DNA of 59,106 bases from Candidatus Hydrogenedentales bacterium (GCA_041859045.1 JBHELB010000051.1:1-59106), one strand, 5' to 3'. Positions 9,503 to 17,721 are shown, counted from the first letter of the stretch. Program-made: numbers and translations. The notes: generated from the sequence alone by a model not told the origin.

Positions 9503-9724
9503 ATGAGCAACAAAATGGCCTTCGAAGTGCCCTTCTTGGTTGGGAGCGTTCCTCTTTCCGAGGAAGGCAGCCCGTGTGCGTCGGGATTCTCATGCGCATG
9601 CGGGTACTCTGGCTGCGCGGATAACTTCGATCCGGACTGCGGTGCCGGGTTGGCGATCTCCGCAATTGGCGCGATCGCCGGCATCGTTATCGCGATCGTG
9701 CCGACGAACGCGGCGCCAGGCTAA
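9503..9724 (+). CDS. RiPP precursor peptide (73 aa): leader, Cys-rich core 'CASGFSCACGYSGCADNFDPDCGAG', then a hydrophobic Gly/Ala/Ile-rich tail
   Basis: Small ORF with RBS GGAGGTG 8 nt upstream. It has five Cys in 22 residues. It is followed on the same strand by a PqqD-like RRE and two radical SAM enzymes. Confidence 0.7.
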   Translation: MSNKMAFEVPFLVGSVPLSEEGSPCASGFSCACGYSGCADNFDPDCGAGLAISAIGAIAGIVIAIVPTNAAPG

Positions 9725-9736
9725 TCTCGGGACCTT

Positions 9737-9881
9737 CTAGTGTGCTTGGCCCTCTTTCTCTTCGAATGGATGTTGCGGCGCGCGCAAGGGCGCTGTAAAG
9801 GCGGTTCGAATCGCGCGACAGCGTTGAAGGGCCGTTTCCCGAGAGGGCGCTTAAGGCAGGGAGCTAGGGCCAAGCACCTAG
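9737..9881 (+). promoter_or_regulatory. Long-range inverted repeat between precursor and modification genes (arms 9737-9753 'ctagtgtgcttggccct' and 9866-9881 'agggccaagcacctag'); possible attenuator or processing structure
   Basis: The arms are near-perfect reverse complements (one indel) enclosing a GC-rich segment with local hairpins. It lies between the precursor stop (9724) and the RRE gene start (9910). Confidence 0.35.
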
Positions 9882-9909
9882 TTCACAGGATGGAAGGGAA
9901 GATTCTCTT

Positions 9910-14978: not shown

Positions 14979-15835
14979 CGGCCGAGAAAATGCGTCTGGC
15001 GCTCCTGTGGACGTTTTACGTCATTACGTGCGTGATCTATCTTCCCAATGGCGTATCGTCAGCGGCCGGCGCCATCGCCGCGCTATGGCTCGTGTATCCA
15101 AATTCCGCAAGCGCCCCGTCGTCGTCCGGGCCACCCACCCGGCACTTTACCCTCGTGGTCGTCGGATTGCTCCTGTTCCCCCCCGTCATATTTGCGAGCC
15201 AGGCGATTCTGCCGCTCGCCCTGCAAAACGCGATGCAGGTGCGTACGGCGTACGGCGATTTCTCCATTCTCCCCAGCCCGCTCTACCTTGGTCTATACGT
15301 TGTCCCCGCGCTGGTCCTCCTGAAAAGGCGCGCGCGCGCCGCAGCCTCAGCGGATGGAGTTCCCATTCGATGGGAGCATGCGCGGCTGGTCCTGCTCAGC
15401 CTTCTAGTTATTCTTCCGGCCTGCATTACGCGGACTCAGAGGGCCGAACAATACGCGATGATGTGCGAAGAGATCTCGCGCAGCTACTGTTTCTATCTCT
15501 TCCTAAAATCATTCTGGTATAACGGCCTGTGGGAAGAACTATACTATCGCGGCGCGTTGCTCTCCGTGCTGACGGTTCGCTTTCGCCCACGCACCGCGGT
15601 GTTGATCGGAGCGACGGTATTCACGCTTCATCACGTCGATCTGCTTTACGGCCTGCTCGTCGGCACTAATCCTCATGTCCTGAAGGATCTCTTCGGCGTC
15701 TTTCTTCTCGGCGTAACGTGTGGGTATATCTATGTCCATACGCACAGGCTGGGGCCATGCATCGTCTACCACGGCGTTGTGTCCGGGTTCGGGTACCTCT
15801 TGGCATATCTCCAAAAACCGCCCGCTTTGCTCTGA
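14975..15835 (+). CDS. CPBP-family (CAAX protease / bacteriocin-immunity-type) intramembrane metalloprotease
   Basis: Polytopic membrane protein with 'EELYYRG' and His-containing motifs ('FTLHHVD', 'YHGVVSGF') typical of the CPBP/Abi family. Confidence 0.75.
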   Translation: MTAEKMRLALLWTFYVITCVIYLPNGVSSAAGAIAALWLVYPNSASAPSSSGPPTRHFTLVVVGLLLFPPVIFASQAILPLALQNAMQVRTAYGDFSILPSPLYLGLYVVPALVLLKRRARAAASADGVPIRWEHARLVLLSLLVILPACITRTQRAEQYAMMCEEISRSYCFYLFLKSFWYNGLWEELYYRGALLSVLTVRFRPRTAVLIGATVFTLHHVDLLYGLLVGTNPHVLKDLFGVFLLGVTCGYIYVHTHRLGPCIVYHGVVSGFGYLLAYLQKPPALL

Positions 15836-15870
15836 GCGGATCTCTCCCAAAAACGGCAGGAACAGTTCGC

Positions 15871-17721
15871 ATGCTGAAAATACAGGAAATCACTCGCGTA
15901 TTCTCGGAAGTCGCCGATGCTTGCCGCGAACTTTACGCTTTTCGCCATTACTTCTCCAAGTGGCGCGCAAAGCTGATCATGCTCGTCATCTTGACTCCCC
16001 TCGGCGCGATTCCTGGCCTTATGGCCCCGTACATCACGAAATGCATTATCGACGTCGCGTATCCCGCGCGCGACTACCCGTATCTGTATTTTCTCTGCGC
16101 GTGCCTATTAAGTTCGGGAGTGGCCGCCATCCTGCTGAGCGTATGGGGCAGCTATCTCTCCGCGTATATCTCCAGCCTCGTAAGTCATAGGCTGGTTCTT
16201 GATCTCTACCGTGGGCTGAGTGCGATAGACCCCCACCACGACCAGCGACAAAGCAGCAGCATTGCCATCGAGCGGCTTGTGAACGACGCCCCCGCCCTGT
16301 CTCATGGCATCACCAACGCGCTTCCGCAGTTCGCCTCCATTGTCTTTGCACTTCTCACGGCCGCCAGCATCATGTCCACCATATCCCTTTGGATCACCCT
16401 CTTGGTCCTCGTCGTGCTTCCCCTGCGCTACGGCCTGACGCTCTATTTGGGGTACCACGCGCGGGCCTTGGGCCTGGAATACCGCAAGGTGAATGAGGAT
16501 ATGGTCTCTTTTGTGTCCGAATCGTGGGGGGGCATGTGGATCGAACAGATTTTTGGTCTGCGCGCGCATCGCCGCTTTATGCTTGGCCTGATTTTGCGGC
16601 GGCGCATCAACGTCATTATCGCATCCTGGCGCAACAATGCGCTTCGAGGCCAAACAGGCGAGATTCTTTCGGCGGCCTGGGGTGGCCTGCTGCTTTTTGG
16701 AGGATGGATTCTAGTTTTCAACGAATCGCTGAAGATGGGCGAGGCCGTGGCGCTTGGCTGGTACATCTCGATCCTCTCGCAACCCTTTCACCAACTCGGA
16801 GAACTGTACAAAGGTTTGATGTCCCTTTCCGTGTATGCAAAGCGGATCGGATTCATGCTGCTCCGTCCGCGACAGGACGACGACCAGAAAGTCACGCTCT
16901 CAACCAAGCCACAGAGCCTCGTCTTGCGCAACGTGTCGCTACGCCGCGCCGACAAGACGATTTTGCGCGACGTCAATCTCGAGTTTCGCATGGGCGAAGT
17001 GGTGGCAGTGATCGGGCCCAAGGGCTCGGGAAAAAGTTCGCTGCTCCAGATATTGGCAGGTCTAGCGCCGCGTCTTGAGGGAGAGTTCTTGATTAACGGA
17101 ATCGAATTTCGAAATCTGGATATTGCCAGCTATCAGCGACACGTCGCCTGGAATCCGCAAATGGGGTATCTGTTTTCCGACACCGTGCGCAACAACATAC
17201 GCTCCAATGGCAAGGCGCTCGATACGCACCGTGTTGCGCGGTACGCACATATTTTCGGCGCGCTAAACTGGGCCGGTTCCGTTGACGAAGGCCTGAACGT
17301 TAAGATTGGCGTCAGCGGACGTCACCTATCGGGGGGCGAGACGCAGGAAATAAGCATCCTGAGGAGCGTTCTAAAGGAGCCCGCCATCCTTCTTCTCGAC
17401 GAGATATGCGCCAGCAGCGATGTGGACTCGGAGCGCAGAATTCTGGAAGGTTTGGCAAGCCTGAAGCGCCACGACTGTTTAACGGTCCTGGTGACGCACA
17501 ATATGGCCTACATTAGTGAGCCTTGGATAGACCGGGTCGTTGTGGTTTCCGATGGCGCTATTTGCGAACAAGGGGCACCCTCGGCGCTAGCCAACAGTGC
17601 TGGACTTTTTGCAACATGGCTACGCAGTCCGCTTGAGAATTCCCTAACCGCCGATCCACCTGAGGGCGGCTTCTCTCCCGCCAAAGCTCCCTCGGAATTG
17701 CTCCCGGACTCCTCTAGATAG
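15871..17721 (+). CDS. ABC exporter (fused transmembrane domain plus ATPase), likely peptide exporter of the RiPP cluster
   Basis: The N-terminal six-TM ABC_membrane region is followed by Walker A 'GPKGSGKSSLLQILAGL', signature 'LSGGETQEISILRS' and Walker B 'LLLDEICAS'. No C39 peptidase domain is present. The start was chosen at ATG 15871 because the longer GTG 15718 start would overlap the CPBP gene by ~120 nt. Confidence 0.8.
   Translation: MLKIQEITRVFSEVADACRELYAFRHYFSKWRAKLIMLVILTPLGAIPGLMAPYITKCIIDVAYPARDYPYLYFLCACLLSSGVAAILLSVWGSYLSAYISSLVSHRLVLDLYRGLSAIDPHHDQRQSSSIAIERLVNDAPALSHGITNALPQFASIVFALLTAASIMSTISLWITLLVLVVLPLRYGLTLYLGYHARALGLEYRKVNEDMVSFVSESWGGMWIEQIFGLRAHRRFMLGLILRRRINVIIASWRNNALRGQTGEILSAAWGGLLLFGGWILVFNESLKMGEAVALGWYISILSQPFHQLGELYKGLMSLSVYAKRIGFMLLRPRQDDDQKVTLSTKPQSLVLRNVSLRRADKTILRDVNLEFRMGEVVAVIGPKGSGKSSLLQILAGLAPRLEGEFLINGIEFRNLDIASYQRHVAWNPQMGYLFSDTVRNNIRSNGKALDTHRVARYAHIFGALNWAGSVDEGLNVKIGVSGRHLSGGETQEISILRSVLKEPAILLLDEICASSDVDSERRILEGLASLKRHDCLTVLVTHNMAYISEPWIDRVVVVSDGAICEQGAPSALANSAGLFATWLRSPLENSLTADPPEGGFSPAKAPSELLPDSSR

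Follow-up and report, generated by a model that had tools for sequence, protein, structure and literature searches.

What kind of product is made by a locus in which two radical S-adenosylmethionine (radical-SAM) enzymes, two peptide-recognition domains, a membrane protease and two transport systems are encoded next to a small Cys-rich open reading frame (ORF)? The question is raised by positions 9503-17721 of a 59,106-nt stretch of DNA from a Candidatus Hydrogenedentales bacterium (GCA_041859045.1, JBHELB010000051.1:1-59106), which at its full length is referred to here as the window. An earlier note on this DNA had proposed a cluster for a peptide that is synthesized ribosomally and modified after translation (RiPP). 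This proposal is borne out by a conserved precursor gene, found in one to five tandem copies in related loci (some have four or five), together with two RiPP recognition elements (RREs), two radical-SAM enzymes and export genes, and the locus is very probably a radical-SAM RiPP cluster of an uncharacterised family. From domain content and from comparison with relatives we infer the putative chemical steps (thioether bridges and C-methylation), the division of labour between the RREs, a processing role for the CPBP protein and the biological activity. As a whole, a pathway in which RRE recognition would be followed by methylation, thioether formation, placement of a tail in the membrane, cleavage by the CPBP protein and export by ATP-binding cassette (ABC) transporters appears reasonably probable.

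Gene content and organization of the cluster

The eight co-directional and mostly coupled genes announced by the earlier note, with the domains assigned to them, are all present on the plus strand, at or near the coordinates given there. Four starts had to be refined, namely those of the cobalamin-dependent radical-SAM enzyme (10188 to 10257), the ABC ATPase (13054 to 13087), the FtsX-type permease (13704 to 13818) and the exporter (15718 to 15871). The genes are as follows.

9503-9724, plus strand: precursor peptide, 73 aa; strong Shine-Dalgarno ribosome-binding site AAGGAGGTG; family alignments
9910-10260, plus strand: stand-alone PqqD-like RRE, 116 aa; Pfam PqqD 1.5e-6
10257-11561, plus strand: cobalamin-dependent (class B) radical-SAM enzyme, 434 aa, hereafter the B12 enzyme; Pfam B12-binding 1.1e-18, Radical_SAM 2.4e-21
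11574-13103, plus strand: RRE-fused radical-SAM/SPASM enzyme, 509 aa, a putative peptide maturase, hereafter the SPASM enzyme; Pfam PqqD, Radical_SAM, Fer4_12 and SPASM
13087-13821, plus strand: ABC ATPase of a MacB/FtsX-type transporter, 244 aa; Pfam ABC_tran 2.2e-34
13818-14978, plus strand: FtsX/MacB-type permease, 386 aa; Pfam FtsX 3.5e-6 and a weak match to MacB_PCD
14975-15835, plus strand: CPBP (Rce1-like, glutamic-type) intramembrane protease, 286 aa; Pfam Rce1-like 8.2e-14
15871-17721, plus strand: half-size ABC exporter (transmembrane domain followed by nucleotide-binding domain), 616 aa; Pfam ABC_membrane and ABC_tran only, no C39 peptidase domain

Four junctions in the cluster overlap: ATGA overlaps join the PqqD-like gene to the B12 enzyme gene, the ABC ATPase gene to the FtsX gene and the FtsX gene to the CPBP gene, and the SPASM and ABC ATPase genes share 17 nt. 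On its 5' side the SPASM gene is separated from its neighbor by a 12-nt gap containing GAGGAGG. A scan of positions 7000-18500 against Rfam returned no match, and therefore no cobalamin or SAM riboswitch. According to Pfam, neither an MNIO nor a P450 gene lies among the cluster genes, and the cassette of the window likewise lacks a third radical-SAM gene. No protein of the cluster attains any curated NCBIfam cutoff.

A precursor family with a conserved core and tail

The five-Cys core quoted in the earlier note, CASGFSCACGYSGCADNFDPDCGAG, matches the sequence exactly, its Cys being residues 25, 31, 33, 38 and 46. It is preceded by a leader (residues 1-24, nt 9503-9574), occupies residues 25-46 (nt 9575-9640) and is followed by a tail formed by the last 27 residues (47-73, nt 9641-9721). 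By taking the whole C-terminal half as core, the earlier note overlooked this tail; no other part of the peptide is as well conserved or as distinctive. The tail is hydrophobic, with VPTNAAPG at its C-terminus, and shows a small-xxx-small pattern (G49, S53, A57, G60 and A64, as read from the sequence) of the type typical of helix-helix packing; its conservation means that the CPBP and ABC genes have to be read differently, as discussed below. No NCBIfam or Pfam model matches the window precursor, including the SCIFF, MftA, PqqA and NHLP/Nif11-type leader models.

Precursors of this kind form a family of their own. The first 14 peptides align well with one another, a word-indexed profile search yielded 26 homologous precursor clusters at 90% identity, and a full HMMER scan of 1.84 billion representative proteins yielded 51 precursor clusters, nearly all of them 60-100 aa long, with matches running over their full length. 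Against profile A2 the window peptide has E = 1e-12, and against a 72-member profile E = 2e-10. P10 and C46 are invariant in alignments A2 and A4, and C31, D40, G45 and T68 nearly so; the window precursor fits the family signature, with P10, C31, D40, C46 and T68 falling in conserved columns.

The design of the peptides was read across 72 sequences. A leader of about 20 aa follows the consensus ML-x-K-P-x-I-hydrophobic-x-hydrophobic-P, of which the window holds the version FEVPFL with the invariant Pro10. The core contains two to six Cys (mode five; four to six in most members), an aromatic [FY]xC motif in 60 of the 72 peptides, and a near-invariant Asp, usually within C-[IV]-D-[ST]-[ST]-[YF] and within CADNFD in the window, while a Gly precedes the last core Cys across the family. 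The tail is uncharged, has a median length of 23 residues, is made mostly of Gly (23%), Ala (19%), Val (18%) and Ile (14%), and has Thr as its final residue in 48 of the 72 peptides. Within the subfamily of the window (P0147, P0162, P0191 and P0193), YSGCAD is common to all, and all except P0191 end in VPTNA(A/V)PG.

Between the window and the locus L090, from a JGI metagenome, the precursors are 67% identical, compared with 28-60% for the enzymes. Identity is unevenly distributed along the peptide, with 9 of 24 positions in the leader, 17 of 22 in the core and 23 of 27 in the tail. Core and membrane-type tail are thus better conserved than the leader and than every enzyme, which argues for a product whose three-dimensional structure is constrained and whose target is probably a membrane. 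The precursor gene adjoins the same enzyme genes in all of the roughly 15 loci whose flanking sequence was long enough for inspection. In databases the family members are annotated as hypothetical proteins, and no description of the exact precursor motifs was found in the literature.

Several Clostridial loci encode two paralogous precursors with two conserved types of tail. One precursor of each tail type, 'GCSYTLGVGAIAAGVGVG...' and 'GC[QKH]xGFAxGGIVxG...', is found at L013:6606-7092, L014:6409-7090, L016:3029-3475 and as P0136/P0138 in Vallitalea longa. This pairing suggests a two-peptide system.

Recurrence of the cassette in other genomes

Neither the membership of the locus in a recurrent cassette family, nor the conserved tail, nor a ninth, upstream gene (8229-9326) had been part of the earlier note. 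Synteny of the cassette extends across phyla. The identical eight genes stand in identical order in the window (58% GC), in L090 (37% GC) and in L092, from an ENA metagenome (26% GC), and L003 (61% GC) keeps this order, except that the precursor gene is present twice and the B12 enzyme gene three times, and its contig stops where the exporter would follow. The SPASM enzyme has very few relatives: those with more than 26% identity along most of their length number only about six in 5.8 billion protein clusters, and the contigs of these closest relatives carry the same gene set.

In Vallitalea, Lachnotalea glycerini, Petralouisia muris and a Pseudobacteroides metagenome-assembled genome (MAG), the order becomes precursor(s), CPBP, a small gene of PqqD size (PqqD by Pfam in several), B12 enzyme, a protein of 59-74 aa and SPASM enzyme, and an aminotransferase and a third, large radical-SAM protein are frequent additions in these loci. 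These shuffled Clostridial cassettes all retain the B12 and SPASM enzymes, and all have the CPBP and ABC genes except for that of Alkaliphilus hydrothermalis, where the B12 and SPASM enzymes accompany a tailed precursor with no CPBP and no annotated PqqD. The named relatives with the full cassette are Clostridia; MAGs of Acidobacteria, Dehalococcoidia and Acetothermia have only a wider pairing of B12 and SPASM enzymes.

All Clostridial members encode, between or just 3' of the B12 and SPASM genes, a protein of 59-107 aa with the motifs 'LSFAG' ... 'VWCP'. It was located at the following positions.

'LSFAG'/'VWCP' protein: L006:9799-10017, L005:9803-9982, L007:9799-10017, L009:7717-7941
'LSFAG'/'VWCP' protein, further loci: L021:3618-3836, L023:11703-11978, L024:11554-11877, L042:5676-5948, L076:6902-7096

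The same protein occurs in the wider B12 and SPASM clusters of Acidobacteria, Dehalococcoidia and Acetothermia, which have neither CPBP nor a tailed precursor, and it is absent from the window, L003, L090 and L092. It possibly has an Sm-like fold, and could be a chaperone or, in the wider systems, a substrate.

Two further variants deserve mention. The first is a Lachnospiraceae locus (L028:4822-5248 and 9130-11371) that has the CPBP and SPASM enzymes and no B12 enzyme; its two precursors retain leader and core ('ACGTY...FSC.PYG..GKID'), and their tails are amphipathic and charged rather than rich in Gly, Ala and Val. A link between the B12 enzyme and a Gly/Ala-rich tail was considered and abandoned: L028 fits it, with charged tails and no B12 enzyme, but L094 and L095, which have a B12 enzyme and tails less rich in Gly and Ala, contradict it. 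The second is the Alkaliphilus hydrothermalis locus, where an agr-type module (L005:4985-7887) with a LytTR regulator, a histidine kinase, AgrB and a 39-aa AgrD-like peptide lies directly 5' of the cluster, which suggests density-dependent control. AgrB/AgrD was ruled out as a system for processing the tail, being a separate quorum-sensing module that is absent from the other loci.

Proposed peptide recognition and radical-SAM chemistry

The free PqqD domain (1.5e-6) and the one fused to the SPASM enzyme (residues 38-103, 3.7e-11) both exceed the Pfam gathering score. The earlier note overstated the case in calling two RREs unusual, as members of this family regularly combine a free PqqD with a fused RRE, and two RREs are likewise present in aminopyruvatide clusters (PMC11002830). 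A small gene lies directly 5' of a B12 enzyme gene in L090, L092, L003, L006, L007, L009, L094 and L095; Pfam recognizes it as PqqD in five of these eight loci, and in the other three it is unannotated or undetected. Because of this position and of the translational coupling seen in the window, the free PqqD was assigned to the B12 enzyme. The short leader (FEVPFL, Pro10) would be bound by the two PqqD-type RRE domains, the free one presenting the peptide to the B12 enzyme and the fused one serving the SPASM enzyme to which it belongs.

With 60.5% identity to L090 and 46.5% to L092, the B12 enzyme is the most conserved enzyme of the cassette, and its CxxxCxxC motif is intact (CPGDCIFC). Its best NCBIfam matches, BchE (167 bits), ApyD (163, cutoff 750) and HpnJ (146), all lie far below cutoff, as does that to the RiPP C-methyltransferase family TIGR03975 (91.5, cutoff 281.85). 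The nearest solved structure, 9CCB, is the methyl-coenzyme M reductase (MCR) glutamine C-methyltransferase (PMC12931638, PMC11796369). Most characterised class B radical-SAM enzymes are likewise methyltransferases (PMC12931638), and ApyD, a B12 radical-SAM enzyme with a fused RRE, methylates the beta-carbon of Tyr in a RiPP (PMC11002830). The most likely reaction of the B12 enzyme here would be C-methylation of an unactivated carbon, and we put a methylating role at about an even chance.

In the SPASM enzyme the Radical_SAM domain is well supported (Pfam 2.6e-25), and the SPASM domain (7e-4) falls slightly below the gathering score. Family alignment shows as invariant the three Cys of the radical-SAM motif (C134/C138/C141) and seven SPASM Cys (C374, C392, C432, C435, C441, C445 and C463). 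The nearest solved structures are, in that order, PqqE, CteB and SkfB, of which CteB and SkfB are thioether synthases, the match to SkfB covering only the radical-SAM core (residues 119-325, E = 4e-11); the best profile match of a Clostridial ortholog is the sactipeptide maturase StsB. The SPASM enzyme would most likely form intramolecular thioethers between the five core Cys and acceptor carbons. One candidate for an acceptor is Asp40, by analogy with Cys-Asp ranthionines; PapB and QhpD are both known to form Cys-Asp thioethers (PMC11002830). The chances that the enzyme makes thioethers seem to us slightly better than even.

Several observations weigh against this assignment of the two chemistries. 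The top profile matches of the SPASM enzyme are of the cofactor type (MftC, AhbD, NirJ and PqqE), and the last Cys, invariant in the alignments, is wanting in some family members. In bits, with cutoffs in brackets, the enzyme scores 132 (265) against MftC, 129 against AhbD, 128 against WgkB, 112 (381) against PqqE, 100 (625) against StsB, 89.3 (340) against PapB (NF047865) and 76.5 (425) against the SCIFF maturase (TIGR03974), with NirJ and DynA also among the sub-threshold matches; AlbA is outside the top 25 matches, and the L006 ortholog reaches 69 against its cutoff of 850. All these matches being far below cutoff, the sequence assigns no reaction. B12 radical-SAM enzymes are moreover documented to form thioethers and rings (PMC12931638).

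The chemistry could accordingly be swapped or be of another kind. The SPASM enzyme might form C-C or C-O cross-links or catalyze epimerisation, as in streptide, darobactin and epipeptides, the Cys might serve as disulfides or metal ligands, and the B12 enzyme might form the thioether or a ring. This is favored by the non-discriminating character of the SPASM profile matches, which include WgkB, DynA, MftC and PqqE at sub-threshold scores, by the known versatility of B12 enzymes, and by the conserved aromatic residue of the [FY]xC motif and the core Asp, both of which could join non-thioether links. Nevertheless, most members have four to six Cys with the last one invariant in alignments, thioethers are the products of two of the three solved SPASM relatives closest to this enzyme, and most characterised class B enzymes, as well as the closest solved one, are methyltransferases (PMC12931638), so that we hold such alternative chemistry to be unlikely.

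The same cofactor-type matches, together with the presence of a PqqD-type chaperone, could also mean that the peptide is not secreted and gives rise to a redox cofactor or prosthetic group in the manner of mycofactocin, PQQ or QhpC. We regard this as highly improbable: scores are well below the cutoffs (MftC, 132 vs 265), the cassette encodes neither a dehydrogenase nor any other client enzyme and includes two export systems and a membrane protease among its conserved parts, related loci have multiple paralogous precursors, and the distribution is sporadic across unrelated GC backgrounds.

The tail, the CPBP protein and the ABC genes

Given the conserved tail, what do the membrane-associated genes do? 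In the favored pathway, the small-xxx-small tail, with its Gly, Ala and Ile, would put the peptide into the membrane, where the CPBP protein, whose gene is coupled to those of the MacB-type ABC pump, would cut off the leader or the tail. The two ABC systems would export the product, protect the producer, or both. The likely end product would be a compact, cross-linked, membrane-active peptide resembling a bacteriocin.

In nine family members the CPBP catalytic motifs (E187-E188-xxx-R192, F216-xxx-H220 and H266) show no variation. The best NCBIfam match of the protein is an ABC-permease/CPBP fusion family, below cutoff, and it scores 23 bits against MrtS (cutoff 130) and 16.5 against Mrt_core (cutoff 100). 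The nearest NCBIfam profiles of the ABC ATPase are DevA, FtsE, LolD, the lactococcin-972-type bacteriocin exporter and the darobactin exporter DarD, and those of the exporter are MsbA, HlyB and bacteriocin exporters, again all below cutoff. Orthologs of the FtsX permease, whose gene has an ATGA overlap on either side, are found in L090, L092 and L003, and the exporter gene closes the cassette in L090 and L092 as well.

Whether the CPBP protein is a processing protease rather than an immunity protein is, by our reckoning, evenly balanced. CPBP proteins in bacteriocin loci can be immunity factors (Abi-type) and not processing enzymes, and the protein is missing from the Alkaliphilus locus and was not seen on the L095 contig, all of which counts against a processing role. 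The CPBP protein and the MacB-type pump might then confer immunity only, in the manner of Abi and LanFEG systems, and the product would keep its tail, insert into membranes and possibly act as a two-component bacteriocin, with the leader removed by a housekeeping protease or not at all. A glycine-zipper-like tail that is strongly conserved, the two tail types paired in Lachnotalea, Petralouisia and Vallitalea longa, the resemblance of the ATPase to bacteriocin and darobactin exporters and the presence of a separate, dedicated exporter all fit such a role. Against it, the CPBP gene of Clostridial loci sits between the precursor and the RRE gene, as a core biosynthetic gene would. The invariant catalytic residues fit immunity as well as proteolysis and therefore do not discriminate. 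Overall, we consider a purely protective function possible but doubtful.

Proteolysis may, on the other hand, serve to remove the tail itself. Rce1 cuts after a prenylated Cys, and myxosortase-type Mrt proteases take off C-terminal signals; by analogy, the tail could be a C-terminal follower or sorting signal that holds the modified peptide in the membrane, with the CPBP protein cutting just after a modified Cys46 and the soluble, cross-linked head being exported. The invariant Cys two to four residues ahead of the tail, the invariant catalytic motifs, the overlap of the CPBP gene with the permease gene, the sub-threshold profile matches to MrtS, MrtJ and myxosortases and the fact that the cassette encodes no other protease all speak for a cleavable follower. 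Yet a mere anchor should need hydrophobicity only, whereas the tail is the best-conserved part of the sequence (23 of 27 identical vs 28-60% for the enzymes) and paralogous tails form two conserved types. There is also no C-terminal basic cluster as in Mrt-type signals, the Mrt profile scores are all far below cutoff, and the Alkaliphilus locus has a tail and no CPBP. A tail destined for removal is in our view rather unlikely.

The processing pathway could finally be carried one step further, to a tail-anchored, membrane-embedded RiPP that would represent a new structural class, with a functional glycine-zipper tail and a CPBP protein dedicated to RiPP processing within the bilayer alongside a MacB-type extractor. 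The tail would then self-assemble in the membrane, or bear B12-dependent C-methylations on Gly, Ala, Val and Ile as in polytheonamide. To our knowledge, such biosynthetic logic is undescribed for any RiPP, and we advance this extension as a speculative and improbable one.

Upstream gene, structured spacer and surroundings

Two further features border or interrupt the cassette.

8229-9326, plus strand: conserved upstream gene, 365 aa; same-position ortholog in L090
9742-9877, plus strand: structured spacer between the precursor and enzyme genes; 12-nt perfect inverted repeat closing a long stem

The product of the upstream gene has an N-terminal membrane helix, probably followed by a beta-rich domain. 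Its ortholog in L090 occupies the same position (30-35% identity, E = 6e-58). The protein has no Pfam or NCBIfam match, a word-indexed search for homologues returned only the protein itself, and a profile combining the copies of the window and of L090 gave no match in L003 or L092; its AlphaFold2 (AF2) single-sequence model has a mean pLDDT of 36 and is usable for helix 3-25 only. In L092 the position upstream of the precursor is held by a TP_0789/LolA-like protein (PF17131; L092:838-1617) that is unrelated to the 365-aa protein and belongs to a family that typically accompanies FtsX/MacB-type transporters. This gives a hint that the 365-aa protein may assist the MacB-type transporter as an accessory.

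Within the 185-nt spacer that separates the precursor gene from the PqqD gene, a perfect 12-nt inverted repeat, GTGCTTGGCCCT (9742-9753) and AGGGCCAAGCAC (9866-9877), closes a long stem (minimum free energy of the spacer fold -83.1 kcal/mol, z = -2.26), and no canonical terminator lies 3' of the precursor gene. The spacer of L092 is only 26 nt long and does not keep the repeat. The structured spacer possibly sets the ratio of precursor to enzyme expression.

Immediately 3' of the cluster, on the minus strand (17769-22818), lie GspF-like, GspE-like and secretin genes of the type II secretion system, which identify the host as a diderm bacterium. At the other end, positions 1-7000 have a low GC content (45-52% vs about 60% elsewhere) and encode a 1345-aa protein in which DUF2357 is combined with a cold-shock domain (813-4850) and, on the minus strand (6177-6809), a 210-aa protein that combines a Phage_Mu_F-like N-terminus with a ribonuclease domain; this region has the look of a defence or toxin island at the border of the RiPP cluster. 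Farther away, the minus strand encodes a 1155-aa thermolysin-like M4 peptidase with a C-terminal dockerin domain (34610-38077) and an unrelated 371-aa radical-SAM enzyme of the SPASM/twitch type (56075-57190), the best matches of which, AhbD and a tungsten-cofactor maturase, are below cutoff.

Implications

Many uncharacterised radical-SAM RiPP clusters exist. This family is set apart by a membrane-type tail that is conserved, by a fixed link to a CPBP protein and a MacB-type pump, and by its spread over very different genomes. It has a clear bioinformatic signature, consisting of a precursor profile and a fixed eight-gene cassette, and joins two predicted radical-SAM chemistries with an intramembrane protease. 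It is a good lead for genome mining. The system is also compact enough to study how a class B radical-SAM enzyme acts on peptides through a separate RRE and which linkage is formed by this clade of SPASM enzymes, and it bears on whether CPBP proteases process RiPPs, a question that is unsettled even for SkfC. As members are found in cultured Clostridia (Vallitalea, Lachnotalea glycerini, Petralouisia muris and Alkaliphilus hydrothermalis), native producers are available.

Comparison with known systems

The earlier note rightly set the cluster apart from the mycofactocin, PQQ, SCIFF and subtilosin gene sets, NCBIfam scores being far below cutoff for these and also for PapB, StsB, WgkB and ApyD. 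The SPASM enzyme falls outside the PapB, SCIFF maturase and StsB families by its scores. Mycofactocin and PQQ are excluded by sub-cutoff scores for MftC and PqqE and by a precursor that ends in VPTNAAPG and matches neither MftA, with its C-terminal Val-Tyr, nor PqqA, with its Glu and Tyr, and proteusins of the polytheonamide type by the lack of an NHLP/Nif11 leader match and a TIGR03975 score below cutoff. Nor does the cluster belong to the aminopyruvatide family (ApyD 163 vs 750, no MNIO, no P450) or to the CPBP sorting systems (MrtS, MrtJ and myxosortase), since the scores are below cutoff, the tail lacks basic residues and the precursor has no signal peptide. No paper and no curated model describing the cluster family was found, in keeping with the claim that its product is probably undescribed. 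As the cluster failed every test run for a named family, no description was found in the literature and the members are annotated as hypothetical proteins, the cluster represents a new RiPP family, not a new category.

Known systems resemble it in different respects. Synerg-CTERM/MrtS, JDVT-CTERM/MrtJ, myxosortases and Rce1 associate CPBP proteases with substrates that, as here, have a conserved Cys just ahead of a C-terminal hydrophobic segment. Those of the sorting systems are secreted proteins, whereas here the candidate substrate is a peptide of 60-90 aa, encoded with radical-SAM enzymes and devoid of a basic cluster. B12-dependent C-methyltransferase pathways (polytheonamide PoyB/PoyC, bottromycin, ApyD and TmoD) share a class B radical-SAM enzyme acting on a ribosomal peptide, and the Gly/Val/Ala/Ile-rich segment of the precursor loosely recalls the polytheonamide core. 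In contrast to the proteusin and ApyD types, no NHLP/Nif11 leader, PoyD-type epimerase, MNIO or P450 is found here. ApyD, the second-best NCBIfam match of the B12 enzyme, is RRE-dependent as well (PMC11002830), the RRE being a separate protein in the present cassette.

Ranthipeptide and sactipeptide pathways (CteB/thermocellin, PapB/freyrasin, SCIFF, AlbA/subtilosin and StsB) likewise combine a Cys-rich ribosomal precursor with an RRE-fused radical-SAM enzyme bearing a full seven-Cys SPASM domain. The present cassette goes beyond them in encoding a B12 radical-SAM enzyme accompanied by an RRE of its own, as well as a CPBP protease and a pump of the MacB type. Its precursor differs from theirs by a conserved C-terminal tail of hydrophobic character and a leader of only about 20 aa. 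The putative protease SkfC of Bacillus subtilis is a CAAX/CPBP-family protein. The sporulation killing factor (skf) cluster of this species encodes a thioether radical-SAM enzyme, the putative protease SkfC and ABC genes (PMC8172795), and the gene logic of skfA-H (precursor, SkfB, putative membrane protease SkfC, and SkfE and SkfF for ABC export or immunity) matches that of the cassette (PMC8172795). SKF differs by having neither a B12 enzyme nor a free RRE, and SkfA by its single thioether with head-to-tail cyclisation and by the lack of a hydrophobic tail. The near-invariant core Asp recalls the Cys-Asp links of freyrasin (PMC11002830), a resemblance that is only suggestive. All in all, the cluster operates in the manner of a ranthipeptide or sactipeptide pathway supplemented by a class B radical-SAM step, with a gene logic similar to that of skf.

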